The notes beneath the pieces were generated by a model, which was given only the letters and a program-made list of their open reading frames with translations, did not search any database and was not told the DNA's origin. Source: Candidatus Dormiibacterota bacterium (GTDB lineage: Bacteria > Chloroflexota > Dormibacteria > Aeolococcales > Aeolococcaceae). From it: 52,236 nt of DNA. Positions 1 to 17,576 of this stretch are shown piece after piece; the stretch's first letter is position 1, and every line of letters starts with the position of its first letter. The stretch covers positions 1-52,236 of the forward strand of contig JBAPOS010000134.1 in NCBI GenBank assembly GCA_049279755.1, given 5' to 3'. The position numbers were made by a program, and so were the translations under genes.

Positions 1-609
1 GTAGGTGGGGCAGATCGCACCACACCCCGCGTGGGTTACCGGTCCGAGGCACGGAATGCCCTTGGATACCATCACACAGACCGTGCCGCGTCGTTTGCAC
101 TCCACACAGACGGAGTGTGATGCGATCTGAGGACGCCGCCCGCGGAGGAACGCGGTGATCACCTCGAGCAACTGGTGCTTGTCGATGGGGCACCCGTGAA
201 GCTCGAAGTCAACGTCGATGTGTGCCGAAGGTGGCGTCGAGTGCTCGAGGGTGCGGATGTACTCAGGATGCGCATAGACGGCGGAGGTGAACTCGCGGAC
301 GTCAGCGAAGTTCCGGAGCGCCTGGATCCCCCCGGCCGTGGCGCAGGCACCGATCGAAACGACACGGGCGCTGAGCCGCCGAACCTCGCGAATGCGCTCG
401 ATGTCATCGGCGGTCGTGATCGAACCCTCCACGATCGAGAGGTCATACGGTCCTGCGAGGACCGCGCGCGAAGCCTCGAGGAAGTAGGCAATCTCAACCT
501 GCCCGGCCACCGCCAGCAGCTCGTCCTCGCAGTCGAGGAGGGTGAGCTGGCAGCCATCGCACGATGAGAACTTCCAGACCGCAAGCGTCGGCTTCTTGAC
601 GGTGTTCAT
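1..609 (-). CDS. [NiFe]-hydrogenase small (delta) subunit, group-3b type; 3' end cut by window edge
   Basis: Absent from the ORF track because it runs off the window. Hand translation from ATG at 609 gives [32 protein letters not shown]...[11 protein letters not shown]...[12 protein letters not shown]...GCGAICPTY. This is the Cys pattern of NuoB/20-kDa-type hydrogenase small subunits. Its start overlaps the stop of the upstream gene (ATGA, 606-609). The frame stays open to position 1. Confidence 0.8.
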
Positions 610-1415
610 CGCTGGTGCACCGCGAGCAGCGGTTCGACGCGGTCCCAGGTCAACACCGGGCCGTCGGCGCAGACGAACACCGATCCCAGCTGGCAGTGCC
701 CGCACTGCGCAATCGCGCACTGCATATTCCGCTCCATGGAAACACGGATTCCCGAGGGCGGCATACCGCGTTCCATCAGCGCGAGGGCGGTGAACCGCAT
801 CATCACTTCAGGGCCGCAGATCATGGCGATGCCTGCGGGATCACAGTGGATACGCGGAAGCACGTTCGTGACCACGCCGACGGTGCCCCGCCAGCCAGGC
901 GTCGCGCGGTCGACCGTGACATGCACGGAGAGGTCGTCGCGCGCTCGCCACGCGTCGACCTCCTCTTTGAATGCGAGTTCCTCGGGCGTGCGCGTGCCGA
1001 TCACCACCTCCACCTCGCCGAAGCGGTCTCGCTGCGAGATGACCTGAGTGATCACCGAGCGAAGCGGCGCCAGACCGATCCCGCCGGCGACGATCACCAG
1101 GTCACGCCCCGCCGCAGTGTCCAGTCCCCAATCGGACCCGAACGGACCGCGGAGGCCGAGGCTGTCACCGGGCTGCAGCTCGCACAGGGCGCGCGAGACC
1201 GCGCCGACGTTGCGCACCGTGTGGGCGATCGGTCCGTCCGCGACCGGGTTCGCGCTGATGGAGATCGCCACCTCACCGACGGCGTAGGCGTAGAGCATGT
1301 TGAACTGGCCGGCGGCGTAGCGCAGTCGGGAGCCGTTGGTCGCCTCGAGGAGGAGGGTCACCGCGTCCGAGGTCTCCTGGCGGCGCCCGACAACCAGATG
1401 GCTCACCGGCGTCAT
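606..1415 (-). CDS. Hydrogenase gamma-type subunit: FAD/NAD(P)-binding oxidoreductase with C-terminal Fe-S site
   Basis: ORF 606..1778 trimmed to ATG 1415 ([12 protein letters not shown]...), because the longer form would overlap the cNMP gene. Ferredoxin-reductase-like motifs are present ([22 protein letters not shown]), plus a C-terminal [12 protein letters not shown]...C cluster. The stop is coupled to the next gene. Confidence 0.8.
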
Positions 1416-1434
1416 CGGGCCGTGCGCCCGCGCG

Positions 1435-1902
1435 TCAGTGTGGAGTGGAAGCGCCATAGACATCCAGGAGGCGGATGCGAGCGGCGTGAAGCCGGTCGCC
1501 GAGGATCCCGGCGACGCGCTGCGCGAGATCGAAGCCGAGCTTGGGGTCGTCCGCACACTTGCCGCGGAGGCAGTGGGCGTCGAACACCACCGCATGGACC
1601 TCGTCGAGCGCGTCGGCGTCGAAATGCCAACGGTACGGAGGAAACAGCCATGCCCATCCGAGGACGTCGCCGGCATGGAGCGTGTCGAGGGTCTGCATGC
1701 CCCTCCCCGGCGCGGTGACTCCGAGCCCAACCCTCCCGGAGCGCAGCGCCCAGAACGCGTCGGCGTTCGCTCCTTCACGGATGATCGAGGCGCCCGCCGG
1801 GATCACGGTATTTCGAGCGCATCCGGTCAGCACCTCGAGATGGTCCGCTGCCATTCCGGCAAAGAACCGATGAGCTGTGAGTTCATCAGCGATCGTATTC
1901 AT
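1435..1902 (-). CDS. Cyclic-nucleotide-binding domain protein (stand-alone, 155 aa) inside the hydrogenase operon
   Basis: Translation shows a typical cNMP-binding beta-barrel signature (FFAGMAADHLEVL...IIREGANADAFWALRSGRV...GDVLGWAWL). Its ATG overlaps the stop of the upstream 4Fe-4S gene (tcat at 1899-1902 = ATGA on the minus strand). Confidence 0.8.
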   Translation of the reverse strand: MNTIADELTAHRFFAGMAADHLEVLTGCARNTVIPAGASIIREGANADAFWALRSGRVGLGVTAPGRGMQTLDTLHAGDVLGWAWLFPPYRWHFDADALDEVHAVVFDAHCLRGKCADDPKLGFDLAQRVAGILGDRLHAARIRLLDVYGASTPH

Positions 1903-3047
1903 GTCGCAGCCTCAGCACGAGCGCCGTCGTTTGATCGGATCGCCGCCGCCTCCTCGGTGATGTCGATGCCGACCGGACACCAGGCGATGCATCGACCGCA
2001 TCCCACGCAGCCCGAGGTCTCGAACTGATCCCACCACGTGCTCAGCTTGTGGGTCATCCATTGGCGGTAGCGGCTGCGCACGGTGGCTCGAACCGGTCCG
2101 CCGTGGATGTACGAGAAGTCGCGTGAGAAGCAGGATGCCCATTCCCGCAATCGCTCGCTCGTCGCGCCGTCCGGTGACTGCGCCTCGACATCATCGCTGC
2201 AGAAGCAGGTTGGGCAGGCGAGGGTGCAGTTACCGCAGCTCAAACAGCGCGCCGCCACATCGTCCCAGCGAGGGTGTTCCAGATTGCGCTGGAGCAACTC
2301 GGGCAGACCGTGGGTGTCCATCGTCCGGCCCATGCGTTGTGCGGATTCGTCGGTGACCGCCTCGGCCGCCTCGACGTCGTCTGCGGTCGCCGGATGCGTG
2401 GGTAACTCGTCCATCAACTCGAGCCCAGCCCGCGTTCCCGCCTCGATGACGTAGCGGGGCACCGACCTATCGAGAAGCTCGGTGATCGCCAGGTCGAAAC
2501 CCTCACGCACGCGAGGACCAGTCCCCATGGACGTGCAGAAGCAGACCTCCGACGGTGACCCGCAGTGCACCGCGATGACGAACAGATTCTGCCGCCGCGC
2601 GGTATACGTGGGGTCCGGGTGCGAGCTGGTGGCGAAGACCCGATCCTGGACAAGGACGGCCGCCAGCTCACACCCCCGAACACCAAGGAAGGCAAATCGA
2701 GGCGGGGGAGCCGCGGTCTCGTCGAAGACCAGTGCTCCGTGCTCGTCGCGCCGAGCTCGCCAGAGTGTCGTGGTTGGCGGGAAGAGGTATCGCTTCCACG
2801 AAGAGGGCGCCGTGGCAAATCCAAAATGGGCGCCGTCGTCACGGTCTCGCAGGCGATAGCGGCCGGGAGACTGCTCGTCGCCCACGCCGCGCGGCAGCTG
2901 CGAGGCACTCGTCACGGGTGCGTACTCGATCGCGCCGTTCTGGACCGTCGGGGCAATCACGGTGTAGCCCCGCTCGCGCAATCCGGCGATGAGGGCATCC
3001 AGGCCATCCTCATCGAGGACGCGAGCTGCTCCAGCGGACGCCGCCAT
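1899..3047 (-). CDS. Hydrogenase beta-type subunit: 4Fe-4S dicluster protein (AsrA / sulfhydrogenase beta-like)
   Basis: ORF 1899..3395 trimmed to ATG 3047 (MAASAGAARVLDEDGLDAL...), since the longer form overlaps the divergent por gene. CLSCGNCTLACPTCFC and CVGCGRCIAWCPVGI ferredoxin motifs are present. Confidence 0.75.
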   Translation of the reverse strand: MAASAGAARVLDEDGLDALIAGLRERGYTVIAPTVQNGAIEYAPVTSASQLPRGVGDEQSPGRYRLRDRDDGAHFGFATAPSSWKRYLFPPTTTLWRARRDEHGALVFDETAAPPPRFAFLGVRGCELAAVLVQDRVFATSSHPDPTYTARRQNLFVIAVHCGSPSEVCFCTSMGTGPRVREGFDLAITELLDRSVPRYVIEAGTRAGLELMDELPTHPATADDVEAAEAVTDESAQRMGRTMDTHGLPELLQRNLEHPRWDDVAARCLSCGNCTLACPTCFCSDDVEAQSPDGATSERLREWASCFSRDFSYIHGGPVRATVRSRYRQWMTHKLSTWWDQFETSGCVGCGRCIAWCPVGIDITEEAAAIRSNDGARAEAAT

Positions 3048-3155: not shown

Positions 3156-3749
3156 ATGCTCTTCCAGGTACGCATCCACGGCCGGGGCGGCCAGGGCGTG
3201 GTCACCGCAGCCGAGCTGCTCTCCGTCGCGGCCTTCCGCGAAGGCCGGCATGCCCAGGCCTTCCCCAGCTTCGGCTCGGAGCGGACCGGAGCGCCCGTGG
3301 TCGCGTTCTGCCGCATCTCTGACCACGAGATTCGCGCGCACGAGCCCGTCGCGAGCCCCGACGCGCTGATCATTCAGGACCCGACGCTGCTGCACCAGGT
3401 CGACCTCTTCCGCGGCCTGCCGGAAACCGGCTACCTGCTCATCAACTCCAGCCGCGGCTTCTCCGAACTGGGGTTCGGCGATCTCGCGGCGAAAGTGCGT
3501 CCTGAGCGCGCCGTGGCAGTGCCGGCGACCGAGATCGCCCGCGAGATGGTGGGGCGGCCAATCGCGAACGCGGTGCTGCTCGGCGGCTTCGCCGCCCTCA
3601 CCGAGGTGATCTCCCTAGCGTCGGTTGTTGCGGCCATCCGTGACCGTTTCTCGGGAGCCCTCGCCGAGGGCAACGTCGCCGGCGCCGAACGCGCCTACGA
3701 ACTCGTCCGACAGCAGATCACGGAGGTCGCCGGTGCTCACGCAGATTGA
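3156..3749 (+). CDS. 2-oxoacid:ferredoxin oxidoreductase gamma subunit
   Basis: MLFQVRIHGRGGQGVVTAAELL...FPSFGSERTGAPV is the characteristic POR/VOR/KOR gamma N-terminus. Substrate cannot be assigned from sequence. Confidence 0.85.
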   Translation: MLFQVRIHGRGGQGVVTAAELLSVAAFREGRHAQAFPSFGSERTGAPVVAFCRISDHEIRAHEPVASPDALIIQDPTLLHQVDLFRGLPETGYLLINSSRGFSELGFGDLAAKVRPERAVAVPATEIAREMVGRPIANAVLLGGFAALTEVISLASVVAAIRDRFSGALAEGNVAGAERAYELVRQQITEVAGAHAD

Positions 3750-4980
3750 GGGTTCGCGCGCGGTTGCCGAAGCAGTCGCCCTGTCGAGGCCCGAGGTGAT
3801 CTGCGCATATCCCATCTCGCCGCAGACGCACATCGTCGAGGCGCTCTCGACACTCGTCAAGAGCGGACGGCTGACTCCCTGTGAGTTCATCAACGTCGAG
3901 TCGGAGTTCGCCGCCATGTCCGTCGCCATCGGCGCCTCCGCGACGGGCGCACGTGCCTATACCGCGACGGCGAGCCAGGGCCTGCTCTTCATGATCGAGG
4001 CGATCTACAACGCGTCAGGGTTGGGATTGCCGATCGTCATGACCGTCGCCAACCGCGCCATCGGCGCACCGATCAACATCTGGAACGACCACTCGGACTC
4101 CATGTCGCAACGCGATTCCGGCTGGATCCAGCTCTACGCGGAGAGCAATCAGGAAGCGGTCGACATGCACATCCAGGCGTTCCGGCTCGCCGAGGAGCTC
4201 TCGGTCCCGGTCATGGTGTGCATGGACGGCTTCATCCTCACCCACGCTGTCGAGCAGGTGGATCTCCCCACTCAGGAACAGGTCGACGCGTTCCTCCCGC
4301 CATTCGAGCCTCGCCAGGTCCTCGACCCCGACGATCCGGTCTCGATCGGCGCCATGGTCGGGCCCGAGGCCTTCACGGAGGTGCGCTATCTCGCGCATGT
4401 CACCCAGATGCAGGCGCTCGATCTCATCCCCGAGATCAGCCGGACATTTGAGGGCGGCTTCGGGCGAGCCTCCGGAGGTTTGGTCCGGCCCTATCGGACC
4501 GACGACGCCGAGATCATCGTCGTGGCGCTCGGGTCGGTGCTCGGCACGATCAAGGACACCGTCGACGAGTTGCGTGATGAGGGCGAACGCGTCGGCGCAC
4601 TCGGTATCACGACGTTCCGGCCCTGGCCCAGTGAAGAGGTGCGTCGTGCGCTGCTCGGGGCACAACGCGTCGTCGTCATCGAGAAGGCGCTCGCAGTGGG
4701 CATCGGTGGGGTCGTTTCGCTGGACGTGCGAGTTGCGCTGTCGGGCCTCGATCAACACGTGCACACCGTGATCGCCGGCCTCGGTGGACGGCCGATCACA
4801 ACGACGTCGCTGCATCAGCTGCTGCGGCGTGCCGCGGAGCTCCCCGAGCTCACCTTCCTCGATCTCGACCGCGACCTGGTCGACCGGGAGCTAGCCCGCC
4901 GTGGCGCCAAGCGGAAGTCAGGCCCACATGCCGAGAATCTGCTGCGTGACCTCGGCGCCGTTGCCGCAGGCCCCGTCTGA
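3733..4980 (+). CDS. 2-oxoacid:ferredoxin oxidoreductase alpha subunit
   Basis: In frame with ORF 3625..4980. A GTG at 3733 overlaps the gamma stop. VLTQIEGSRAVAEAVALSRPEVICAYPISPQTHIVE is the conserved alpha N-terminus. Confidence 0.85.
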   Translation: MLTQIEGSRAVAEAVALSRPEVICAYPISPQTHIVEALSTLVKSGRLTPCEFINVESEFAAMSVAIGASATGARAYTATASQGLLFMIEAIYNASGLGLPIVMTVANRAIGAPINIWNDHSDSMSQRDSGWIQLYAESNQEAVDMHIQAFRLAEELSVPVMVCMDGFILTHAVEQVDLPTQEQVDAFLPPFEPRQVLDPDDPVSIGAMVGPEAFTEVRYLAHVTQMQALDLIPEISRTFEGGFGRASGGLVRPYRTDDAEIIVVALGSVLGTIKDTVDELRDEGERVGALGITTFRPWPSEEVRRALLGAQRVVVIEKALAVGIGGVVSLDVRVALSGLDQHVHTVIAGLGGRPITTTSLHQLLRRAAELPELTFLDLDRDLVDRELARRGAKRKSGPHAENLLRDLGAVAAGPV

Positions 4981-4991
4981 GGAGGCGGGAC

Positions 4992-6002
4992 ATGCCCTTT
5001 CAACCGATCAAGTTCTACCAGGCCGGCAGCTTCGTCGCCGGCAACCGCCTGCTCGAACCGGACCAGCGTTCGGTGCAGTCCGACGCTGACCGATCGAACA
5101 CCCTGACGTCGGGACATCGTGCGTGCCAGGGATGCGGCGAGGCCCTCGGGGCGCGGTACGCACTCGACGCCGCGATGCGCGCGACGAATCATCGTCTCAT
5201 CGCTGCCAACGCCACGGGGTGCCTCGAGGTGTTCTCCACGCCCTACCCCGAGTCGTCCTGGCAGCTGCCATGGATGCATTCGCTGTTTGGCAACGCTCCC
5301 GCGGTGGCCACCGGTATCGCCGCGGCGCTTCGTGTGAAGGGACGCCATGACGTTCGCGTCGTCGGTCAGGCAGGCGACGGCGGCACGGTGGACATCGGGC
5401 TCGGCTGCCTGTCCGGGATGTTCGAGCGCAACGACGATGTCCTCTTCATCTGCTACGACAACGAGGCATACATGAACACCGGCGTGCAGCGGTCCGGTGC
5501 GACACCGGCGGCCGCTCGCACGGCAACCACGGAGGCGGTCGGGCCGGAGCCGGGCAATCGCTTCGGCCAGGGGAAGAATGTGCCTCGGATCGCGATGGCG
5601 CACGAGATCCCCTATGTCGCTACGGCCACGGTCGCCGACCTCCGGGACATCGAGTACAAGGTCGAACGCGCCATGACGCTGCACGGCGCCCGCTATCTGC
5701 ACATCCTCGTCACCTGCCCACTCGGCTGGGGATGCGACTCCGCCGACACCATCCGGGTCGCTCGTCTGGCCACGCAGAGCGGTCTTTTCCCGGTGTTCGA
5801 GGCCGAGCACGGGGAGGTCACCGCGGTGACCAAGATCCGCCGGCAGGTGCCGGTGGAGGAGTACCTGAAGCTCCAGAAACGCTACGCACACCTCTTCGGG
5901 AAGTCGGCACGGCCCGACATCGTTGCGCGTCTGCAGGCGCAGGCCGACCACAACATCGCCCGATACGGCCTCCTCGAGGGTGAGCCGGTGGGAGCGCGCT
6001 GA
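4992..6002 (+). CDS. 2-oxoacid:ferredoxin oxidoreductase beta subunit (TPP-binding)
   Basis: CQGCGEAL, GDGGTVDIG...YDNEAYMNTGVQRS thiamine-diphosphate/Fe-S motifs. The stop overlaps the next gene start (ATGA-type junction at 6002). Confidence 0.85.
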   Translation: MPFQPIKFYQAGSFVAGNRLLEPDQRSVQSDADRSNTLTSGHRACQGCGEALGARYALDAAMRATNHRLIAANATGCLEVFSTPYPESSWQLPWMHSLFGNAPAVATGIAAALRVKGRHDVRVVGQAGDGGTVDIGLGCLSGMFERNDDVLFICYDNEAYMNTGVQRSGATPAAARTATTEAVGPEPGNRFGQGKNVPRIAMAHEIPYVATATVADLRDIEYKVERAMTLHGARYLHILVTCPLGWGCDSADTIRVARLATQSGLFPVFEAEHGEVTAVTKIRRQVPVEEYLKLQKRYAHLFGKSARPDIVARLQAQADHNIARYGLLEGEPVGAR

Positions 6003-7633
6003 TGGACAAGCCGTTCGCAATCACCTTGAACGTCGGCTCGAGCCTGGCTAACAAGACGGGCTCGTGGCGTACCGAGCGTGCGGTGTACGTGCACCGGCTC
6101 CCTCCCTGCGCCAATGCGTGCCCGGCCGGGGAGAACGTGCAGGAATGGCTGTATCAGGGCGAGGGACCGAACTACGAGGCGGCGTGGCGACAGATCATGG
6201 AGGACAACCCGCTGCCCGCGGTCATGGGGCGGGTGTGCTACCACCCGTGTGAGGCGGCCTGCAATCGCGCTGAGCTCGACCAGACCGTCGGGATCAATTC
6301 CGTCGAACGCTTTCTCGGGGATGAGGCGATAAAGCGGGGATGGACGGTTGGCGTGGAGGCTGCGCCGACCGGCAAGCGAGTCCTCGTCGTCGGCGCCGGC
6401 CCTTCGGGACTATCGGCGGCGTACCACCTGACCCGCCTCGGTCACTCGGTGACCGTGATCGACTCCGGCTCTGCCGCTGGCGGCATGATGCGTTTCGGGA
6501 TCCCCAAGTACCGGTTGCCTCGCGCTGTGCTCGACGCCGAGGTGCGGCGCATCCTCGATATGGGGGTCGACCTCCAGCTCAACCACAGGGTGAGCGATCT
6601 GCTCGCCACCATGCACGGTGGTGGCTTCGAAGCCGTCTTCCTCGCGGTCGGCGCGCACATTGGGAAACGGGCGTACATCCCCGCCGGTGACTCTGCCCAC
6701 ATCCTCGATGCAGTGTCGTTGCTGCGCAGCATGGAGGGAGAGCAAGCGCCCATGCTCGGCAGACGTGTGGTCGTCTACGGCGGCGGCAACACCGCAATGG
6801 ATGCGGCTCGCACCGCCAAGCGGCTCGGTGCCACGGACGCCCTGGTCGTCTACCGCCGAACGCGCGAGCGCATGCCGGCGCACGACTTCGAGGTCGAGGA
6901 GGCCCTCGACGAGGGCGTGACCATGAAATGGCTCTCGACCATCACCCAGGCCGACGGTGGCACGTTGCGGCTCGAGAAGATGGAGCTCGACGCGGCCGGG
7001 TTTCCACAGCCGACCGGGGAGTTCGAGAAGCTTGAAGCCGACTCTCTAGTGCTCGCGCTGGGTCAGGAGTCCGACCTGGCGCTGCTCGACGGCGTCCCCG
7101 GCATCGAGGTCGACGACCATGTCGTGCAGGTCGGCACCAACATGATGACCGGGTACGCCGGGATCTTCGCCGGCGGCGACATGGTGCCGGCGGAACGCAC
7201 GGTCACCGTCGGCATTGGCCACGGCAAGAAGGCGGCGCGGCACATCGACGCATGGCTCCGCGGTATCCAACACGCCCCGCCACCCAAACACGAGCTGGCG
7301 ACGTTCGACAAGCTCAATCCCTGGTACTACAGTGACGCACCAGCGACCGTCCGTCCGCAACTCGACGCGGCACGACGCCGCTCCACGTTCGACGAGGTGA
7401 TCGGCGGGCTCGATGAGTCCAATGCACTGTTCGAAGCACGCCGCTGCCTGTCCTGCGGCAACTGCTTCGCGTGCGACAACTGCTACGGCGTGTGTCCCGA
7501 CAATGCTGTGCTGAAGGTGGAACCGGGCGCGGCGTACGGCTACGCGATCGATCTCGACTACTGCAAAGGCTGTGGCATGTGCGTCGAGGAGTGTCCGTGC
7601 GGAGCGCTGGAGATGGTGCCCGAAACGGTTTGA
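6002..7633 (+). CDS. Fusion protein: PorD-like N-terminal arm + GltD/SudA-like FAD/NAD(P)H oxidoreductase + C-terminal 2x[4Fe-4S] ferredoxin domain
   Basis: The N-terminus GSSLANKTGSWRTERAVYV resembles the start of POR delta subunits. It is followed by GltD-type Fe-S Cys motifs (CANACPAGENV, VCYHPCEAACNR) and a Rossmann motif (VLVVGAGPSGLSAAY, GGGNTAMDAA). The C-terminus carries CLSCGNCFACDNCYGVCP and YCKGCGMCVEECPCGA. Confidence 0.75.
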   Translation: MDKPFAITLNVGSSLANKTGSWRTERAVYVHRLPPCANACPAGENVQEWLYQGEGPNYEAAWRQIMEDNPLPAVMGRVCYHPCEAACNRAELDQTVGINSVERFLGDEAIKRGWTVGVEAAPTGKRVLVVGAGPSGLSAAYHLTRLGHSVTVIDSGSAAGGMMRFGIPKYRLPRAVLDAEVRRILDMGVDLQLNHRVSDLLATMHGGGFEAVFLAVGAHIGKRAYIPAGDSAHILDAVSLLRSMEGEQAPMLGRRVVVYGGGNTAMDAARTAKRLGATDALVVYRRTRERMPAHDFEVEEALDEGVTMKWLSTITQADGGTLRLEKMELDAAGFPQPTGEFEKLEADSLVLALGQESDLALLDGVPGIEVDDHVVQVGTNMMTGYAGIFAGGDMVPAERTVTVGIGHGKKAARHIDAWLRGIQHAPPPKHELATFDKLNPWYYSDAPATVRPQLDAARRRSTFDEVIGGLDESNALFEARRCLSCGNCFACDNCYGVCPDNAVLKVEPGAAYGYAIDLDYCKGCGMCVEECPCGALEMVPETV

Positions 7634-7779: not shown

Positions 7780-9167
<1,388 letters not shown>

Positions 9168-9411
9168 GATGCACCTCCTGCGTCCCAGCGCATGTCCAGG
9201 TCAAGTCACGGTTCAACTCTTGCACCGAGATTCGTCCGCAACCAGGGCCGAAGGTCACATGGTCGTTGCCACGCCTTCAGGGCGGCGAAGTTATGGTTGC
9301 CCTTCAGGGACGTGCGACCATCCTGTGCCTGTGACCTGAGGGGAATACCGAGGTTCTCCAACCCTCGTCCCATCAGGCGCCCTGTCGAAGGTCCCGTCCA
9401 TATCGTGGCGA

Positions 9412-10416
9412 ATGACCCTGGCGAGCTGCTACGTCGCTTGGTGTGATGGTCACATGAACGAATATGCGACCGCTCCTACTGACATTGCGGTGAGCACTGC
9501 CGTCATGAATCGCCCTCGAAGCGATCCTTGGAAGAGCATCCTGGTGGCCACCGATGGATCTGCCGACGCCCATGCGGCGCTCCGTGCGGCTGCGGATCTC
9601 GCGTGCCGGTCCGGTGCGACTCTGACCCTCGTCACCGCATACGACCTTCCCGCATCCGCCCTCTACGCATTTCCCGCCCTCATGGGTGTCACGGACCGGT
9701 CGCCCTATGAGACGGCGGCGTTCACGCTGCTCGAAGCCGAGCGCTCCACGGCCGCGGCGCTTGGTGCCGTTGTCGACGAGGTGTACGCCGGCATGGGAGC
9801 GATCGACGAGGTGAGCCTCCGGGTGGCAGAACAGATCGACGCCGACCTCATCGTCGTGGGGAACCGCGAGCTCCGCGGGTTCAAACTGCTGGTAGGCGGG
9901 AGCACGTCCGCGGGAGTTGTGCACGGTGCCCACTGCCCGGTGCTGATCGTGCGCGGCGAGGAGCGATCCTGGCCGCCACACGGCGTCGTCGTCGGTTTCG
10001 ACCACTCGCCCGCATCCCGCCGAGCTGCGCAGGCTGCCATGGCGATCACGCAGCTGTATCCGGACACGGCCATGACGCTGATCCAGGTGCTCGCGGACAC
10101 TGCGGTCCATCCGAACGCGGTGCTTCGCACACCCGAGCGTGTTGACACCGAACACGCGAGCCTTGATCGGGAGGCAGCGGCGCTTGGTCGGCGCATCGGC
10201 CGTCCGGTCGGCACCGTCCTCGCCGTCGGCGATCCTGCCGACGTGCTGACCAAACGCAGCGACAACGCAACGACGCCCGACCTCGTCGTCGTCGGCACGC
10301 GCGGACTTGGCAGCGTTCGGCGCCTCGTGCTCGGGAGCGTTTCGACCAAAATCCTCCACTCCGGCCACAGCCCGCTGCTGGTGATGCCCGAGAACGGAAC
10401 GCCGGAATCCTCGTAG
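9412..10416 (+). CDS. Tandem universal stress protein (two UspA domains)
   Basis: SILVATDGSADAHAAL...LIVVGNRELRG...GSTSAGVVHGAHCPVLIVR, then a second copy ending LVVVGTRGLG...GSVSTKILHSGHSPLLVM. Start is uncertain (in-frame ATGs at 9412, 9454, 9505). Confidence 0.8.
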   Translation: MTLASCYVAWCDGHMNEYATAPTDIAVSTAVMNRPRSDPWKSILVATDGSADAHAALRAAADLACRSGATLTLVTAYDLPASALYAFPALMGVTDRSPYETAAFTLLEAERSTAAALGAVVDEVYAGMGAIDEVSLRVAEQIDADLIVVGNRELRGFKLLVGGSTSAGVVHGAHCPVLIVRGEERSWPPHGVVVGFDHSPASRRAAQAAMAITQLYPDTAMTLIQVLADTAVHPNAVLRTPERVDTEHASLDREAAALGRRIGRPVGTVLAVGDPADVLTKRSDNATTPDLVVVGTRGLGSVRRLVLGSVSTKILHSGHSPLLVMPENGTPESS

Positions 10417-10542
10417 CACCCTCGTTCGGGGAGCCTTGAGACGAAGGGCACATCAGCCGGTGACATTCGGCTCTGTTATCTGCCTTCTGGCAGTCCTAGC
10501 GTGGAGCCTAGATCGGCAACCCTGTGAACCGGAGGTGTGGCT

Positions 10543-12111
10543 ATGACACTTGTGATGGAACCCCTCGTCGAGACAAAGCCCGTAGACAGCAAGGTGTACA
10601 CGCCGCCCGGCCAACCTGGCAGCCTGGTCGAAGTCAAGCCCTTGTACGGCAACTTCATTGGCGGCCGCTGGGTGCCACCGGTCTTTGGCAAGTACATGCC
10701 AGACATCAGCCCAGTCAACGGCAAGGTGTTCTGCGAAGTGGCGAAATCGACAGCGGAAGATGTTGAGCTCGCGCTGGACGCCGCACACGCTGCAAAGGAC
10801 GCCTGGGGCGCCACCTCGCTCGCAGAACGCGCGGCCGTTCTGAATCGGATCGCCGATGCCATCGAGGCCAACCTCGAGATGCTGGCGGTGGCGGAGAGTT
10901 GGGAGAACGGCAAGCCGGTGCGCGAGACGCTCAATGCGGACCTGCCGCTCGCGGTTGATCACTTCCGGTACTTCGCCGGCGCGACTCGTTCCCTGGAAGG
11001 TCGAAGCACAGAGATTGACAAGGACACAGTCGCGTACCACTTCCACGAACCCCTCGGAGTGGTCGGGCAGATCATTCCGTTCAACTTCCCGCTGCTGATG
11101 GCCGCGTGGAAGATCGCTCCCGCATTGGCGGCAGGAAACTGCACGGTGCTCAAGCCGGCATCCCCGACGCCCTGGTCGATTCTCAAGCTCGCCGAGGTCA
11201 TCGAAGACATCGTGCCTGCAGGCGTGATCAACATCGTGACCGGCCCGGGTGGCGAGATTGGCAAGGCGCTCGCATCCAGCCCGCGCATCGCGAAGATCGG
11301 CTTCACCGGTGAGACCGTCACCGGCCGCTTGATCATGCAGTACGCCGCCCAGAACCTCATCCCCTCGACCGTCGAGTTGGGCGGCAAGTCGCCGAACATC
11401 TTCTTCGACGATGTGATGGCCGCGGATGATGATTTCCTCGACAAGGCGATCGAAGGCCTGGTTCTCTACGCCTTCAACAAGGGCGAGGTCTGCACTTGCC
11501 CGTCACGTGCCCTGATCCAGGAGTCGATCTACGACCGGTTCATGGAGCGCTGCCTGGCTCGCATCCACGCGATCAAGCAGGGCAACCCGCTCGACGTGAG
11601 CACGATGGTCGGCGCGCAGAACTCCGCGCAGCAACTCGAGAAGATCGAATCCTACGTCAAGATCGGACGTGGGGAAGGCGCGAAGTGCCTGATCGGCGGC
11701 GCACGCCCGAGCGTCGACGCGGAACTCGCGGATGGGTACTACTTCCAGCCAACAGTCCTGGAAGGCAACAACAAGATGCGTGTCTTCCAAGAGGAGATCT
11801 TCGGCCCGGTCCTCGCGGTGACAACCTTCAAGGACGAAGCCGAGGCAATTGCGCTCGCCAACGACACCCTGTACGGCCTCGGAGCCGGTGTCTGGACGCG
11901 CGATGGAAGCCGAGCCTACCGCATGGGACGCGCCATCAAAGCCGGGAGGGTCTGGACCAACTGCTACCACCTGTACCCGGCGGGTGCCGCCTTCGGCGGA
12001 TACAAGATCTCGGGCGTCGGGCGCGAGAATCACCAGATGATGCTGGAGCACTACTCGCAGACGAAGAATCTGCTGGTGAGCTACAGCGCCAAGGCGCTGG
12101 GCTTCTTCTAG
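10543..12111 (+). CDS. NAD(P)-dependent aldehyde dehydrogenase
   Basis: ORF 10537..12111. ATG 10543 lies 7 nt after GGAGG (10531-10535). Motifs [11 protein letters not shown] and catalytic-Cys [12 protein letters not shown]. Confidence 0.9.
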
Positions 12112-12131
12112 AAGTCGAGATCGGTAACGGC

Positions 12132-12506
12132 ATGAGCGATCACACCTCCACGGCGCGTGCAACCGCGCGTGTGGTCGCTACGCCGGCCGCCTTGCGAGCG
12201 ATTGGTCGCCTGGTTGCTCAGCGAGGCCCCATCATGTTCTTTCAGTCGGGAGGCTGCTGTGATGGCAGCCTCCCGATCTGTTTCGATCTCGGAGAGTTCG
12301 TCCTGAGTGACCATGACATCTTGCTCGGCGATGTCGGTGGCTGTCCCTTTTACATCGACCACCGTCAATTCGAGGCGTGGAAGCACACGCAGCTCATCCT
12401 CGACGTGAGCGATGGCCTTCCCGAAGGCTTCTCGCTGCCAGCGGGGACGGACCAGCACTTCGTGACGAACTCTCGCCTCTATCGCCACGAGAAGACGTCG
12501 GGGTAG
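12132..12506 (+). CDS. DUF779-family protein (usual companion of aldehyde dehydrogenase)
   Basis: In-frame ATG 12132 within ORF 11496..12506. FFQSGGCCDGSLPICF...GGCPFYID matches my recollection of DUF779. Confidence 0.7.
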   Translation: MSDHTSTARATARVVATPAALRAIGRLVAQRGPIMFFQSGGCCDGSLPICFDLGEFVLSDHDILLGDVGGCPFYIDHRQFEAWKHTQLILDVSDGLPEGFSLPAGTDQHFVTNSRLYRHEKTSG

Positions 12507-12732
12507 GGTCGCGGTACGCGCCGCGCTGTGTCAGGACCATTGATGCTGGCGCTCATGTATCTCGCCGTCTAGGTGGCTTGGAAGTGACTTCCGCCCGTGA
12601 GCCCATCCCTCCATAGGTCCCGGAATTCCACAACCTGTTGCTCTGGCAGAAGCCTGGCAACTCGGCAAGCATGTGTTTCAACAGCCCCAGAGTGCCCTCA
12701 CTGTGAAGCAACTCATCAACGGAGGACGCGCG

Positions 12733-13026
12733 ATGCCATCCTTGGTCGACGCCGCACCACGAGAGGTCCACGTTACGATCCCCTATTCCATCCATGACGT
12801 CGACTCCATCGCCAGGCAGGCTGGGTTCGCGGTGAGTCACGACGAGGCCACTGCGATCCTCGATCACATTGACCGTGAGACCGCCACCGTGGCACGGTCG
12901 GCTGCTGCTGCGGCCATAGACGCGCGGATCGCCGAGCTCGTTGAGGTGGTTCGGAGCGCACACCTGGCGCCGAGCAGGAGCGCCTCGGATGGATCGACGT
13001 GGCCTCGGCGTCTGTCGATGTGCTAG
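12733..13026 (+). CDS. Hypothetical protein (97 aa)
   Basis: ATG 12733 is preceded by GGAGGA at a suitable distance. Codon third-position GC is coding-like. No motif recognised. A competing antisense ORF (12553..13071) looks compositionally worse. Confidence 0.45.
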   Translation: MPSLVDAAPREVHVTIPYSIHDVDSIARQAGFAVSHDEATAILDHIDRETATVARSAAAAAIDARIAELVEVVRSAHLAPSRSASDGSTWPRRLSMC

Positions 13027-13073
13027 TCGAAAGATCGACTTGCAGACAGTGACGAACCCCGGCGGCGCCAAAC

Positions 13074-14702
13074 GTGGTTGAGGCTACCTCTCCGTCGAGC
13101 CTTGGCAAGCGCCACGAGACTCGCGGGTCGGGTAATCGCATTACCAACTCAAGCGCGCAGGTTGGGTTGCTCGGCTTCGCGGCAGCATCAGCGATCGGGT
13201 TCGCTGCGGCAATCGTCGCGGCGCCATACGCCAGACCGCACCTGACCATGGCGGGGGCAATCGTCGCAGGTGTCACGGTGGCGATCGCGATTCCTGTGTC
13301 GCGCTGGCCGCGTCTGGCGCCCCTGGTCGTCGTGACACTTCTCTACTACGCTGCTTTGACGCTCCTTGTTCTAGGTGCCGGCGGCCAAAGCGAGGGGCTT
13401 CTCGCTTTGGCCGCTATTCCCCTCGTCGCAAGTGCCTTGTACGGTCGGCCAAGCCTGACGATCACCGCTCTCGTCGCAGCCACAGCGACCCTGGGCTCCG
13501 ATGGACTCATCAACCGGCTCAGCGTCGCGGACTACGCGCAACTCCTCGTCGTGTGGCCGATCACCGGAGTGGGGATTGCGTACGCAACGTATCAACTGCG
13601 CTCCCGACTCGAACAGACGGTGAACGAGCGCTCAGAAACCATTCAGCACGACGCGGTGCTGGCGTTGATCGCTGATGAAATGTACGCCACACTCGACAAA
13701 GACGAAGTCCTCCGGCTCGGGGTCCAGAGCGCTGCCCGCCTCACCGATCTGGCGGGTCAGGCCCAGTCGAAGGCAGGCTTCTTCCTCGTTGACGGCGATC
13801 GAGCGACTCTGGTCGCCTTCTACGATCCTGATCTGGGCGGCGCAGCCCTTTCCGACAAGCGAATCGGTGACCTGAGCGTCTCGCTCCTGAGCACGGTCCA
13901 TTTGCATCAGGCGGCTGCGAGTCATGAGGATCGGCTCTTCATTCTTGATCACAATAGCTACGCGCCGCCGGAAATCGCGGCGATGCTCGCCGAACTCGAC
14001 GTTGAGACCGCAATCGTGCAACTGGTCCGCGTCGGAGACGATGCCAGCGGGCTCCTCGCCGTCTTCAAGAGCGATGCATCGGCGCCGGGATACAGCCACG
14101 CACAAGGCGAGTGGCTCCGAGCCTTGACGCCGCTCTTCGAGCTTGCCCTCTCGAGAGCGTTGGTCTTTGAGGCAGCGGCCACCATCGACGAATTGACGGG
14201 CATCGCCAATCGCCGTGAGTTCGATCGCCGGTTGGCGAGTACGCCTCGGCGCGCTGAATACTCGCTCCTCGCCATCGATATCGACAAGCTTAAGGTGATG
14301 AACGACACATACGGGCACAAGGCAGGGGATGAGTTGCTGCAGGCTGTGGCTGGAGCGTTGCGACGATCCGTGCGTCGTGGGGACGTGGCCGCGAGGGTGG
14401 GCGGTGATGAGTTTTCGGTCCTCCTGTCCGACGCCGATCCCGGTCATGCCGAGGCTGTTGCCGACCGGGTCCTTGCCGAGTTGGCAAAGAGCAGCGTGCG
14501 CGACCAGCTGCCAAGCGTCAGCATCGGAATCGCCGGTTTCGATAGCGGCGAGGACGCCGCGGCGCGGATCGCGGCCGCGGACCGGGCCCTCTACGAGGCA
14601 AAGGCTGCCGGTGGGAATCGAGCCGCTCATGCTGCGGGAACCAACATCCCAACCCAGATCTGCGCCCCTGTGGCTCTACCCGGTGTGGTTGGCGATGTGT
14701 GA
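13074..14702 (+). CDS. Membrane-anchored diguanylate cyclase (multi-TM N-terminus, GAF-like middle, GGDEF)
   Basis: GTG start. The hydrophobic N-terminal third is followed by DELTGIANRREFDRRL and an intact GGDEF (RVGGDEFSVLL). An RxxD I-site (RRGD) lies five residues upstream. Confidence 0.85.
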   Translation: MVEATSPSSLGKRHETRGSGNRITNSSAQVGLLGFAAASAIGFAAAIVAAPYARPHLTMAGAIVAGVTVAIAIPVSRWPRLAPLVVVTLLYYAALTLLVLGAGGQSEGLLALAAIPLVASALYGRPSLTITALVAATATLGSDGLINRLSVADYAQLLVVWPITGVGIAYATYQLRSRLEQTVNERSETIQHDAVLALIADEMYATLDKDEVLRLGVQSAARLTDLAGQAQSKAGFFLVDGDRATLVAFYDPDLGGAALSDKRIGDLSVSLLSTVHLHQAAASHEDRLFILDHNSYAPPEIAAMLAELDVETAIVQLVRVGDDASGLLAVFKSDASAPGYSHAQGEWLRALTPLFELALSRALVFEAAATIDELTGIANRREFDRRLASTPRRAEYSLLAIDIDKLKVMNDTYGHKAGDELLQAVAGALRRSVRRGDVAARVGGDEFSVLLSDADPGHAEAVADRVLAELAKSSVRDQLPSVSIGIAGFDSGEDAAARIAAADRALYEAKAAGGNRAAHAAGTNIPTQICAPVALPGVVGDV

Positions 14703-14800
14703 CCAACGGCACTGGTGGGTCGTTGCGCGGAAGACGATCATCGAACCGTGAAGCCAAGGGCTCCCGGTGAATGGACCCACCGCCTGCACAGGAGGTTGCC

Positions 14801-15289
14801 ATGACTCCGACAACAGCCATGACCGCCGGCGGCGTACTGAGCGCTGAAGCGGCATCGCTCGGCTCGCGGGTGCATGAGATCCGCGGGCTGATCCGCGCAT
14901 TGCCTGACCTCACCGAGGAAGACGTGGTCGACGCCCTCGCCCGGCTTCGTCCATTCATCAACTATCTCGCCGCGCATGGACCCGCAGAGGAGCACATCCT
15001 CTATCCCTACGCTGCGAGCGTCAATGGGACCGGTTTGACTTCCCTCCGTCGCGACCACATGCGGCTCGAGGAGCTCGCCACGGCGATCGCCGCGTGGACC
15101 TCGGCCATGGGTCGAGCGAAGCTGGCTCTGCTCCTCACCGCCTTCTGCGACACCGCGGAGGCGCATCTCGCCCTTGAAGCCGAGCGCTGCTTCTCAGTCG
15201 TGCACAAGCACAGCTCTGCGAGGTCGGAGCGCTACCTGTACGGGGAGCTCGAGATCGAGACCTTCGAAACGGCGCGCGGGGCGACCTGA
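14801..15289 (+). CDS. Hemerythrin-like (HHE cation-binding) domain protein
   Basis: ATG 14801 follows AGGAGG (14790-14795). H/E-rich helices are present (HGPAEEHILYPY, DHMRLEEL, EAHLALEAE). The family call is by motif resemblance only. Confidence 0.55.
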   Translation: MTPTTAMTAGGVLSAEAASLGSRVHEIRGLIRALPDLTEEDVVDALARLRPFINYLAAHGPAEEHILYPYAASVNGTGLTSLRRDHMRLEELATAIAAWTSAMGRAKLALLLTAFCDTAEAHLALEAERCFSVVHKHSSARSERYLYGELEIETFETARGAT

Positions 15290-15309
15290 TAGCCGCAAAG
15301 GAGGACGGA

Positions 15310-15603
15310 GTGTCGAAAGAGAACCACACGATTCGGGTCTGGGCCTGGAGGGAGGGGACGCGTGAGCTGGTGTTCTCGGTGAACACTCCAAGCGCCCGGC
15401 GTGCCGGGCTGTCTCACGTCCGCAAACTGCAGGAAGACCCGACGGTCAATCGCATCGAGATGCGCGAGCATCTGGTCACCGTCGATGGCGACGAGGCGGC
15501 GCTCCCCAGCGGCATTCGCGGCAGTCTGGGTTGGGAGCGCACCGATGGTCGGTGGCGCAGGATTCGAACCAGCGAGGCGCACCTCGAGCGCCGCCGAGGC
15601 TGA
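15310..15603 (+). CDS. Hypothetical protein (97 aa)
   Basis: The GTG start is preceded by AAGGAGG. It lies 20 nt after the hemerythrin-like gene and 13 nt before the USP gene (operon-like packing). No motif recognised. Confidence 0.5.
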   Translation: MSKENHTIRVWAWREGTRELVFSVNTPSARRAGLSHVRKLQEDPTVNRIEMREHLVTVDGDEAALPSGIRGSLGWERTDGRWRRIRTSEAHLERRRG

Positions 15604-15616
15604 GAGGGACAGAGGC

Positions 15617-16069
15617 ATGTTCACCAAGATCCTCGTTGCTTTTGACCGATCCACCCATGCGCGCGCGGCTCTGACAGAGGCGGTGGACATTGCGCGAACC
15701 CAGAACGCAACGCTGACCATCCTCACCGCGTATTCGACGTATTTGGCGTGGCCGGGGGTGGGTCTCGGCGGGCTCAGCCAATCCATCTACGACGAAGTGG
15801 TGGCAGCGTCGCGTGCGGCAGGACAGGCGGTCCTCGACGAGGCCGTCAAACAGCTACCGGGCGAGATGAAGGCCGCCACCCGCCTTGTCGACTCCTCCGC
15901 TCCTGAGGCGATCCTTGACGAGAGCAACGCGGGCGGCTATGACCTCGTTGCCCTGGGTTCGCGAGGCCTTGGAGACGTCGGCTCCCTCTTTCTGGGGAGC
16001 GTGAGCCACCGTGTCTTGCACAGCAGCCGGATCCCGGTGCTGATCGTGACGGCGCGGGCCGCCGTCTGA
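15617..16069 (+). CDS. Universal stress protein (single UspA domain)
   Basis: In-frame ATG 15617 of ORF 15401..16069. MFTKILVAFDRSTHARAAL...LVALGSRGLG...GSVSHRVLHSSRIPVLIV. Confidence 0.85.
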   Translation: MFTKILVAFDRSTHARAALTEAVDIARTQNATLTILTAYSTYLAWPGVGLGGLSQSIYDEVVAASRAAGQAVLDEAVKQLPGEMKAATRLVDSSAPEAILDESNAGGYDLVALGSRGLGDVGSLFLGSVSHRVLHSSRIPVLIVTARAAV

Positions 16070-16155
16070 AGGGTGACGACCGCGGATCAGTGTCCCTGAA
16101 TCACGACGAGCGCCATCGACGACGGGCAACTTTCGCGCACGCCTATCGCCGGGGT

Positions 16156-16395
16156 TCAGCGTGGGCTCTGCGGGCCCTGGGCAAGCGTCAGCGGGCAGCG
16201 CCCCGGCTCCATGTTCGTCACTGTGAACGACACCTCAGGGCCTGGCGGATCTCCCACGCCGATGACGTGCAGCCCCGCGCAGATGTAGGGCGGCGCGTCG
16301 CTCACTGGACAGCGGCCTTCCGATGTCGGCCCGCTGCACTCTTCGAGTACCTGGTCTGTCGAGGGGTCGAGCATGACGTACCTTTGGCGTTCCAT
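16156..16395 (-). CDS. Hypothetical small protein (79 aa, 4 Cys)
   Basis: ORF 16156..16470 trimmed to ATG 16395 (MERQRYVMLDPS...). High third-position GC. No family recognised. The competing plus-strand ORF 16090..16431 is Arg-rich. Confidence 0.35.
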   Translation of the reverse strand: MERQRYVMLDPSTDQVLEECSGPTSEGRCPVSDAPPYICAGLHVIGVGDPPGPEVSFTVTNMEPGRCPLTLAQGPQSPR

Positions 16396-16473
16396 GTGAG
16401 GAGCATGCCGCTGACCACGAAGCGGGGCTAGTGCCGAAGGTCGTCGATGTGCGAGGACTTTCGGACACACATG

Positions 16474-16890
16474 TCAGGTCGCGGGGATGCGTCGGCCAGT
16501 CACCTCATCCATCGAGATCTCCACCCAATGTGCGGTGGAACGCGTTGCCCAGGAGCGCAGCGGTCCACGTCGAAGTTCGTCCAACCGGCTCTCGTCGGTG
16601 ATCTCGTGAGCGGTCCCTCTGACGACGACGCTCCAGCCGGCGTGGTACAGCGGACGGCTGTCATCGACTTCGAACACGACGGCCGCGCCGCCACCGATCG
16701 CACTCAGTTTCGTGCCCGGCTCAGTGCAGAACACGACGGAAGCGTCGTCGGCGAGGTAGTTGACGGGGAGGATCATCGGCCGCCCATCGACCACGAAGCC
16801 AATTCTTCCCACGTACGCATGGAGTTGCAGAAGTTCGACGGCCTCGGCTCGTTCCAGCTCCTGAACCCTCGTCTGAGGCTGGCTCTCCAC
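16474..16890 (-). CDS. Pyridoxamine 5'-phosphate oxidase-family (flavin/F420-binding split-barrel) protein
   Basis: AEAVELLQLHAYVGRIGFVVDGRPMILPVNYL...VVFEVD...GWSVVVRG is typical of the PNPOx-like family. It lies 11 nt downstream of the response regulator gene (operon). Confidence 0.75.
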   Translation of the reverse strand: MESQPQTRVQELERAEAVELLQLHAYVGRIGFVVDGRPMILPVNYLADDASVVFCTEPGTKLSAIGGGAAVVFEVDDSRPLYHAGWSVVVRGTAHEITDESRLDELRRGPLRSWATRSTAHWVEISMDEVTGRRIPAT

Positions 16891-16901
16891 TCGGTCTCCT
16901 C

Positions 16902-17576
16902 TCAGGTCCAGTCGTTCGTGTCGCGCTTCTTGAGGCTTCGCCGGGCCATGAACGCGGCGGCCTCCGCACGCCGCGACAGCCCCAGTTTCATGAGGATGTT
17001 GGACACGTAGTTCTTCACGGTTTTCTCAGCGAGGAATACCTTCTCGGCGATCTGACGGTTGGTCATCCCTTCGGCGACCAGGTCGAGAATCTTTCGCTCC
17101 TGCGGGGTCAGCTCGGCGATGCCCTCATCGAGCTGCGCTCCGTCTCCGCGGAGTCGAGCCAGTACGCGTGCGGTCACCGTGGGGTCGAGCAACGATTCGC
17201 CTCGGGCCACCTGGCGGATGGCGCCAACCAGGTCGCCACCACGTACCTGCTTGAGAACGAATCCAGCCGCGCCGGCCATGATCGAGCTGAAGAGAGCCTC
17301 GTCGTCGGAATGCGCGGTCAACATCAGCACCTTCGTATCGGGAAACGCAGATCTGATCTCACGACACGCCTCGATGCCGGATCGACCCGGAAGACGGACG
17401 TCCATGATCACGACATCAGGGCGACTCGACTCGACCGCCTTGAGCGCGGCATCGGCATCGGCGGCCTCGGCGACCACGGCGATACCTCCGACACCGTCCA
17501 GGATGCTGATGAGTCCGCGGCGTACCAGTTCGTGATCGTCGCAGAGCATGACCCGGATGGCGGGCTCGTCAGGCAC
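16902..17576 (-). CDS. NarL/LuxR-family response regulator, DosR/DevR-like
   Basis: Receiver domain (RVMLCDDHELVRRGL...DVVIMDVRLPG...KVLMLTA) plus a LuxR HTH (LTPQERKILDLVAEGMTNRQIAEKVFLAEKTVKNYVSNILMKLG). Confidence 0.9.
   Translation of the reverse strand: MPDEPAIRVMLCDDHELVRRGLISILDGVGGIAVVAEAADADAALKAVESSRPDVVIMDVRLPGRSGIEACREIRSAFPDTKVLMLTAHSDDEALFSSIMAGAAGFVLKQVRGGDLVGAIRQVARGESLLDPTVTARVLARLRGDGAQLDEGIAELTPQERKILDLVAEGMTNRQIAEKVFLAEKTVKNYVSNILMKLGLSRRAEAAAFMARRSLKKRDTNDWT

Follow-up and report, generated by a model that had tools for sequence, protein, structure and literature searches.

A 2-oxoacid oxidoreductase cassette of Dormibacteria whose delta subunit appears to be split by a permuted NADPH-FAD module

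The four-gene locus

Positions 1 to 52,236 of contig JBAPOS010000134.1 (GenBank assembly GCA_049279755.1, a Candidatus Dormiibacterota bacterium of the Chloroflexota class Dormibacteria), a stretch of 52,236 nucleotides referred to below as the window, carry four tightly packed genes on the plus strand at 3156-7633. Three of them encode the gamma, alpha and beta subunits of a 2-oxoacid:ferredoxin oxidoreductase (OFOR), and the fourth, here called gene 4, encodes a protein that appears to be the PorD delta subunit interrupted by an inserted flavoprotein. The genes are listed with their coordinates, strand, product length in amino acids (aa) and best-matching profiles.

3156..3749, plus strand: porC, gamma subunit, 197 aa (PF01558 POR, 140 bits; TIGR02175 PorC_KorC, 187.5 bits, cut-off 81.1)
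3733..4980, plus strand: porA, alpha subunit, about 415 aa from a GTG at 3733 (PorA_Arch NF040682, 467 bits; POR_N and PFOR_II domains)
4992..6002, plus strand: porB, beta subunit, 336 aa, with the thiamine pyrophosphate (TPP) site and the proximal [4Fe-4S] cluster (PorB NF008819, 324 bits; TPP_enzyme_C)
6002..7633, plus strand: gene 4, predicted delta subunit carrying an NADPH-FAD insertion, 543 aa (NF009410/PRK12771, 752 bits, full length)

The real start of porA is probably the GTG at 3733, because the PorA_Arch match begins at aa 37 of the listed open reading frame (ORF); from this start porA overlaps porC by 17 nucleotides. Since the two genes overlap, there is no room between them for an ORF or a porD, and none is present in the window sequence at this point, which is the usual slot of porD in four-subunit pyruvate:ferredoxin oxidoreductases (PFORs), where the usual gene order is porC-porD-porA-porB (PMC13768988). 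Gene 4 is instead placed after porB, and its ATG (6002-6004) overlaps the TGA of porB (6000-6002) in a TGATG junction. Read directly, the porB sequence carries CQGCG (C45 and C48), C77, GDGG...YDNEAYMNTG and a CPLGWGC stretch, residues that by analogy would act as cofactor ligands.

No free delta subunit scores above the TIGR02179 cut-off in the whole 2.94-Mb genome (89% complete), in which the best match is the C-terminus of gene 4 itself, and no short ORF with the PorD arm motif is found at 80 related loci. An earlier reading of this DNA, made from the letters and their translations (the sequence-only reading), had described gamma, alpha and beta subunits without a separate delta, and a fourth gene start/stop-coupled to the beta gene; both descriptions hold.

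Architecture of the gene 4 protein

The chain order of gene 4 is PorD arm, Fer4_20 part 2, FAD/NADPH domains, Fer4_20 part 1 and PorD ferredoxin domain, with the following coordinates.

6011..6103, plus strand: PorD N-terminal arm, aa 4-34 (PorD_Arch, 22 bits, E=1.3e-4; PDB chain 9bt4_G)
6101..6340, plus strand: GltD-type Fe-S domain, second part, aa 34-113, with C36, C40, C79, C83 and C87 (PF14691 Fer4_20 positions 30-112, 64.8 bits)
6377..7222, plus strand: FAD and NADPH dinucleotide-binding domains, aa 126-407, with VVGAGPSG, YGGGNTAMD and VVYRRTRERMPA (PF07992, 92 bits)
7379..7465, plus strand: GltD-type Fe-S domain, first part, aa 460-488, a helix and RC482LSC485G following the flavin domains (Fer4_20 positions 2-30, 19.5 bits)
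7460..7624, plus strand: PorD 2x[4Fe-4S] ferredoxin domain, aa 487-541 (TIGR02179 positions 25-78, 53-56 bits; PorD_Arch positions 28-85)

Pfam places Fer4_20 at aa 34-113, Pyr_redox_2 at aa 126-407 and a dicluster domain at aa 487-538 of the protein. Both ends of the chain resemble PorD. Searched alone, the N-terminal 52 aa match only PRK12771 and three PorD models: aa 6-31 fall on positions 6-31 of the PorD_Arch profile (NF040684, E=1.3e-4), with the motif ..G.S...KTGxWR..RP/A.. present, and a PDB sequence search pairs aa 4-34 with residues 3-33 of the solved PFOR delta chain 9bt4_G (E=7.5e-4). Profile alignment thus upholds the proposal, first made by eye from the peptide GSSLANKTGSWRTERAVYV at aa 12-30, that the N-terminal arm is PorD-like. 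At the other end, aa 487-541 align to residues 32-83 of 9bt4_G (E=7.6e-13), so that the arm and the ferredoxin piece (peptides CLSCGNCFACDNCYGVCP...YCKGCGMCVEECPCGA at aa 482-535) are collinear on this chain and abut exactly.

When the arm and the ferredoxin domain are joined in silico, the product matches TIGR02179 at 72.3 bits (cut-off 60.05) over positions 5-78 and PorD_Arch at 79.5 bits over positions 6-85. A control join with a shuffled arm reaches 53.2 and 57.3 bits, respectively, with coverage starting only at positions 23-26. Native gene 4, in which the PorD pieces lie 452 aa apart, scores 56.4 bits on TIGR02179 and so falls under the cut-off, and the PadF model gives 26-36 bits against a cut-off of 150. 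The arm is nearly invariant and is among the best-conserved parts of the protein across the gene 4 family. As judged by these alignments, gene 4 is a PorD split by an inserted flavoprotein.

The inserted part is itself rearranged. When aa 460-488 are joined to aa 33-119, they give one contiguous Fer4_20 match (positions 2-112, 94.8 bits, versus 64.8 bits for the second part alone). A contiguous N-terminal Fer4_20 ahead of the FAD/NAD(P)H domains is absent from gene 4 and appears only after this stitching. The cysteines show the same displacement: the N-terminal GltD-type Fe-S region has five cysteines only, without the usual leading CxxC, and the C-terminal cysteine-rich stretch has six before its first CP (C482, C485, C488, C491, C494 and C498), two beyond what the ferredoxin motif needs. 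Because the Fer4_20 parts flank the flavin domains in reversed order, the two split domains, PorD and Fer4_20, are interleaved, and the GltD-like module is circularly permuted. The sequence-only reading had recognised a GltD-type Fe-S/FAD/NAD(P)H body, which the PF07992 and Fer4_20 matches support, but had overlooked that its Fe-S domain is split and permuted. It had likewise seen the C-terminal 2x[4Fe-4S] ferredoxin, which stands as the PorD domain at aa 487-541, but had counted into it C482 and C485 (RCLSCG), which profile matching assigns to the GltD-type Fe-S domain.

Fifteen cysteines are invariant across 80 homologues from five or more phyla, the ferredoxin cysteines C488/491/494/498-P and C521/524/527/531-P being present in 80 of 80 sequences. 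The fifteen would fit four clusters if one ligand is not a cysteine: the two PorD clusters would take eight, one GltD-type cluster would be held by C40/C79/C83/C87, and a composite GltD-type cluster would be formed by C482/C485/C36 and one further ligand. In relatives, the equivalent cluster has Glu, Gln, Lys or Cys as its fourth ligand (PMC10482914, PMC8097209).

The closest solved relatives of the flavin module are chains with the same permuted order as gene 4 (PPCxxxCP..FAD..NADPH..RCLxCG), namely NfnA of NfnABC (9bov_A, 308 bits) and StnC of Sporomusa ovata StnABC (8oh5_C, 271 bits), at 33-39% identity. Residues 33-491 of gene 4 align in one stretch to 8oh5_C residues 101-573 and to residues 101-574 of 9bov_A (C. 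saccharolyticus NfnA); for the NfnA of T. sibiricus (9n5u_A) the alignment falls into two stretches, aa 33-422 and 452-492, with the order unchanged. A YRRT motif at the NADPH site is common to gene 4, StnC and the NfnABC NfnA chains. Scores are 215 bits for NfnI-L (5jca_L) and 210 bits for NfnB (4ylf_B). In an AlphaFold2 (AF2) single-chain model built from a 71-sequence alignment, the predicted local distance difference test (pLDDT) values are 80-97 in the FAD/NADPH region; the top Foldseek matches of the model are the flavin-module relatives StnC and NfnA, with template modelling (TM) scores of about 0.63-0.73 to NfnI-L, GltD and NfnB. In StnC the GltD region (aa 102-565) is an insertion in a NuoG-like protein and forms a non-bifurcating NADPH entry site with two [4Fe-4S] clusters (PMC10482914). 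The difference lies in the surroundings: the scaffold of StnC and NfnA is NuoG-like and their partner is a HydBC-type bifurcating module, whereas the scaffold of gene 4 is PorD and its partner is a TPP enzyme. Pfam finds no NuoG or molybdopterin-type domain in gene 4.

Relatives, distribution and neighbourhood

A profile search for the same fusion places the whole protein in a curated family. Gene 4 scores 752.1 bits on NCBIfam NF009410/PRK12771 (cut-off 516), with aa 7-541 covering profile positions 21-565 of 566. This model, titled "NAD(P)-binding protein", already spans the arm and the C-terminal ferredoxin domain, as gene 4 does; its annotation gives no functional name and is silent on the porCAB link, the split PorD and the permuted Fe-S domain. 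Models of the glutamate synthase small subunit score below their cut-offs (TIGR01317 226 versus 483 bits and TIGR01318 160 versus 448 bits), and no GltB-type gene was identified in the annotated part of the window.

More than 8000 database proteins match gene 4, and relatives are encoded in at least 594 species-representative genomes. The best 80 relatives are 71-89% identical to it and come from Dormibacteria, Actinomycetota (Solirubrobacterales and Thermoleophilia) and Alpha-, Beta- and Gammaproteobacteria; those that carry organism names are all from metagenome-assembled genomes (MAGs). Of 69 loci at which sufficient upstream DNA is available, 68 have porC-porA-porB immediately before the gene 4 homologue and on its strand, and the gap between porB and gene 4 is mostly -7 to +30 nucleotides. 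The cassette of porCAB and gene 4 is thus strictly conserved. In the phylum of the present genome its distribution is patchy, the full-length form (about 750 bits) being found in five of 121 sampled genomes, and gene 4, porA and porB are 71-96% identical across Dormibacteria, Actinomycetota and Alpha-, Beta- and Gammaproteobacteria. This high identity across phyla suggests a single origin of the fusion and, together with the patchy presence in its own phylum, horizontal spread of the whole cassette, possibly recent. The gene 4 sequence recurs in several independent soil metagenomes, and it is therefore not an assembly chimera.

Some relatives in the phylum (G049:C99:4953-6542 and G025:C20:2043-3632) score about 625 bits on PRK12771, with a match from profile position 30, and may lack the PorD arm. 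One 90% cluster, around P0002, contains both beta subunits of 336 aa and gene 4 proteins of 543 aa. An 828-aa protein from a European Nucleotide Archive contig (P0017) was considered as a natural fusion of beta and gene 4 and rejected; its sequence runs out of frame both within beta and where beta meets gene 4, and it is an assembly or frameshift artefact.

Several known enzymes are comparable in part. The alpha, beta and gamma subunits are homologous to those of the canonical PorABCD PFOR (Methanosarcina acetivorans, PDB 9bt4), and both halves of PorD are kept in gene 4, but here a flavoprotein stretch of about 450 aa interrupts the delta, whose gene follows porB, and the predicted acceptor is NADP+ rather than ferredoxin. 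The Pad phenylglyoxylate:NAD+ oxidoreductase (PadEFGHI of Aromatoleum/Azoarcus) also combines a POR-type alpha/beta/gamma core with a flavoprotein and reduces a pyridine nucleotide, and the PadE, PadG and PadI models match the gamma, alpha and beta subunits at 152-279 bits; in Pad, however, the delta remains a free subunit (PadF), and the epsilon flavoprotein is a separate protein, PadH, from a different family. As a homologue of the gene 4 flavoprotein, PadH was rejected (19.9 bits versus a cut-off of 475).

For the 2-oxoglutarate:NADP+ oxidoreductase of Azoarcus evansii, PMC10134865 (citing Ebenau-Jehle 2003) classes a subunit as GltD-family. The enzyme, an OFOR reported to reduce NADP+ by way of that subunit, is a biochemical precedent for the function proposed for the gene 4 complex; it differs in having a two-subunit KorAB-type core, a separate GltD-like subunit without a PorD arm, and 2-oxoglutarate as its substrate. 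The core in the window is of the porC/porA/porB type and not a two-subunit KorAB. Finally, the pyruvate:NADP+ oxidoreductase (PNO) of Euglena and Cryptosporidium carries out the same net reaction by joining a PFOR to an NADP+-reducing flavoprotein (Rotte 2001, cited in PMC13768988), but it is a single-chain PFOR with a cytochrome-P450-reductase-type FMN/FAD domain, that is, with unrelated modules and no Fe-S flavin module.

The sequence-only reading knew of no characterised enzyme with the present arrangement. This remains so for the exact topology, but the concept has precedents in OFORs that carry an added flavoprotein and reduce NAD(P)+ (A. evansii, Pad and Euglena PNO). We found no description of the split-PorD/permuted-GltD topology, of the strict partnership with porCAB or of the distribution in the literature searched, a search that could miss a paper in a subscription journal, and neither a 2026 review of PFOR diversity nor a 2021 review of Fe-S flavoenzymes mentions the gene 4 fusion.

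The cassette is flanked on one side by divergently transcribed hydrogenase genes and on the other by genes of central metabolism, stress response and regulation.

1..3047, minus strand: hydrogenase genes encoding a Fer4_22 beta-like subunit (PF17179), a cyclic-nucleotide (cNMP)-binding protein (PF00027), an FAD/NAD gamma-like subunit (PF00175 with PF10418) and a small subunit truncated at the start of the window (PF01058)
7795-8802: glyceraldehyde-3-phosphate dehydrogenase
9412-10416: tandem-domain universal stress protein
10537-12111: aldehyde dehydrogenase
13074-14702: GGDEF protein
15401-16069: universal stress protein
16902-17576, minus strand: DosR-like response regulator
17935-19887: GAF-GAF histidine kinase
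19884-22598: GNAT domain fused to an ADP-forming acyl-CoA-synthetase-like protein

From its subunit composition the hydrogenase, whose large subunit lies outside the window, would be group 3b-like and NAD(P)H-linked. The cNMP-binding protein (1435-1902) is a stand-alone protein encoded between the Fer4_22 and FAD/NAD subunit genes. In 11 of the 80 related loci, a homologue of the hydrogenase small subunit is encoded no more than 7 kb from the cassette. Together with the hydrogenase genes, the region 7795-22598 resembles a hypoxia or dormancy island, and the GNAT/acyl-CoA-synthetase-like protein could be a Pat-type acetyltransferase or an ATP-yielding outlet for acetyl-CoA downstream of the oxidoreductase.

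Because three homologues of the 2-oxoacid dehydrogenase E2 component are encoded in the same genome, the cassette is probably not its sole 2-oxoacid-oxidising system. A second OFOR lies on another contig (C223, locus L095:3248-7949). There, a gene for a 609-aa GltD-like protein, 31% identical to gene 4, is situated 2 nucleotides upstream of genes for a KorA-type alpha subunit (605 aa, TIGR03710 539 bits) and a KorB-type beta subunit (349 aa). The GltD-like protein shows the Fe-S permutation seen in gene 4, carries at its C-terminus a ferredoxin domain that contains a long insert, and has no PorD arm. By analogy, this locus looks like the arrangement of the Azoarcus 2-oxoglutarate:NADP+ oxidoreductase.

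Proposed electron route and competing explanations

We consider it probable that the four genes encode a 2-oxoacid oxidoreductase, likely specific for pyruvate, in which the delta subunit has been rebuilt as the electron exit to NADP+. The most economical way to read the locus is that TPP-dependent oxidation is wired directly to a pyridine nucleotide. The PorD arm would anchor delta to the alpha/beta core, and the permuted NADPH-FAD-2[4Fe-4S] module, of the StnC and NfnABC-NfnA type, would be inserted at the junction of arm and ferredoxin, beyond the medial and distal clusters. Electrons would pass from the TPP radical to the [4Fe-4S] cluster of beta, then through the PorD medial and distal clusters and the two GltD-type clusters, the composite one first, to FAD and NADP+, so that the wire from TPP to FAD would span five [4Fe-4S] clusters. 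The predicted net reaction is pyruvate + CoA + NADP+ -> acetyl-CoA + CO2 + NADPH, with no diffusible ferredoxin.

Pyruvate appears the most likely substrate on two counts: alpha, beta and gamma take their highest scores from the PorA, PorB and PorC models (467 bits with a cut-off of 550, 324 with 405 and 202 with 225, as equivalogs), and the closest solved alpha chain is that of the M. acetivorans PFOR (9bt4_B, 383 bits, versus 224 bits for oxalate oxidoreductase). A preference for NADP is suggested by the VVYRRTRERMPA motif, since the StnC and NfnA chains, which bind NADPH, conserve it as well. The NADP couple lies at -0.32 V. The pyruvate couple has an E0' of about -0.5 V (PMC13768988), and the oxidative direction from pyruvate to NADP+ would release roughly 35-40 kJ/mol, making it effectively one-way. 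The potentials of the PorD clusters, medial and distal, are near -385 and -475 mV (PMC12337175) and are compatible with downhill transfer to FAD and NADP+.

A number of observations weigh against this assignment, or at least against parts of it. The alpha and beta subunits fall below the PorA and PorB equivalog cut-offs, so that specificity for pyruvate is not certain. The choice of NADP over NAD is drawn from one conserved motif, and the putative composite cluster has only three assigned cysteine ligands (C482/C485/C36). The AF2 model has pLDDT values below 50, and is unreliable, in the arm, in both Fe-S domains and in the linker; because of these values, the packing of arm and ferredoxin and the distances between clusters cannot be read from it. 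The link to a hydrogenase holds in only 11 of 80 loci. The sequence is found in soil DNA metagenomes only, no RNA runs matching it. Lastly, it is a GltD-type FAD that bifurcates electrons in NfnAB, and the stoichiometry could therefore be more complex than a simple transfer to NADP+.

The alternative that best survives, although we regard it as unlikely, is that the same wiring serves another substrate, such as 2-oxoisovalerate, 2-oxoglutarate, arylpyruvate, oxalate or glyoxylate. The shortfall of alpha and beta against their equivalog cut-offs would fit it, and the Vor, Pad and oxalate-oxidoreductase models also reach 220-300 bits. To our knowledge, the biochemically characterised NAD(P)+-linked bacterial OFORs act only on 2-oxoglutarate and phenylglyoxylate, which also speaks for a substrate other than pyruvate. 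Nevertheless, no other models fit the three subunits nearly as well as PorA, PorB and PorC, the alpha chain is far closer to that of the M. acetivorans PFOR than to that of oxalate oxidoreductase, and the genome has the separate korAB-type OFOR with a GltD-like partner of its own.

An electron-bifurcating or confurcating complex, in which the FAD of gene 4 would couple pyruvate oxidation to NADP(H) and to a second partner, as in NfnB, is rather improbable. The partner would be a free ferredoxin or the FAD/[2Fe-2S] gamma subunit of the hydrogenase, and indeed the hydrogenase operon includes, at a distance of 1.4 kb, the gene for a PyrK/NfnA-like FAD/NAD protein that has an Fe-S tail, and the flavin module belongs to the GltD/NfnB superfamily, as its matches to 5jca_L and 4ylf_B indicate. 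Its closest relatives, StnC and the NfnA of NfnABC, however, use the permuted module as a plain NADPH entry, StnC having lost bifurcation (PMC10482914). Moreover, the conserved cassette comprises porCAB and gene 4 only, with a hydrogenase near it in few of the loci, and coupling would be unneeded for a transfer from pyruvate to NADP+ that is already strongly downhill.

It is very unlikely that the GltD module is not the main exit and that NADPH instead keeps the Fe-S chain reduced, or reactivates the enzyme after exposure to O2, with free ferredoxin as the acceptor. The hosts are soil aerobes or microaerophiles, as such a role would suit, and small ferredoxin-like ORFs exist elsewhere in the genome (for example a 122-aa frame on contig C23). 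The module is, however, placed beyond the PorD distal cluster, where an external ferredoxin docks, it is invariant and always translationally linked, and the Azoarcus precedent, an OFOR with a GltD-family subunit, reduces NADP+ catalytically (PMC10134865).

Least credible is operation as a reverse, NAD(P)H-driven pyruvate synthase by reductive carboxylation of acetyl-CoA, which the sequence-only reading had offered as an option: OFORs are reversible in principle and several carriers are autotrophs (Gallionella, Nitrosomonadales and Chromatiaceae MAGs), but the reaction would be about +35-40 kJ/mol uphill (-0.5 V versus -0.32 V) and so is implausible without extra coupling, for which the cassette has no device, and the reverse-acting PFORs known need a low-potential ferredoxin or flavodoxin (PMC13768988).

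If direct wiring to NADP+ is retained as the preferred reading, the physiological role of the complex would likely be pyruvate oxidation under hypoxia, with the NADPH plausibly disposed of as H2. Tentatively, and with slightly more doubt than confidence, we extend this to the family as a whole: PRK12771-type cassettes may represent a widespread class of ferredoxin-independent pyruvate:NADP+ OFORs that supply NADPH in aerobic soil bacteria when oxygen runs out and that, where a 3b-type hydrogenase is adjacent, would complete a path from pyruvate to H2 that needs no ferredoxin and serves hypoxic persistence.

From the standpoint of protein evolution, gene 4 presents a clean insertion of a domain within a domain combined with a circular permutation, and the same portable NADPH module occurs in NuoG-like proteins (Stn and NfnABC) and in PorD. 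A self-contained pyruvate-to-NADPH enzyme requiring neither ferredoxin nor lipoate could, if the wiring is true, be useful in bioengineering. Were it true, many soil and freshwater bacteria would pair an "anaerobe-type" TPP/Fe-S pyruvate oxidation with delivery to NADP+, the carriers including Dormibacteria, Solirubrobacterales/Thermoleophilia, Burkholderiales, Gallionellaceae, Nitrosomonadales, Xanthobacteraceae and Chromatiaceae. Metabolic reconstructions in which porABC stands for a ferredoxin-dependent, anaerobic enzyme would then be wrong for these organisms, and the cassette would offer a concrete source of NADPH for the NADPH-linked hydrogenases that are thought to lie behind hypoxic H2 production in obligate aerobes.

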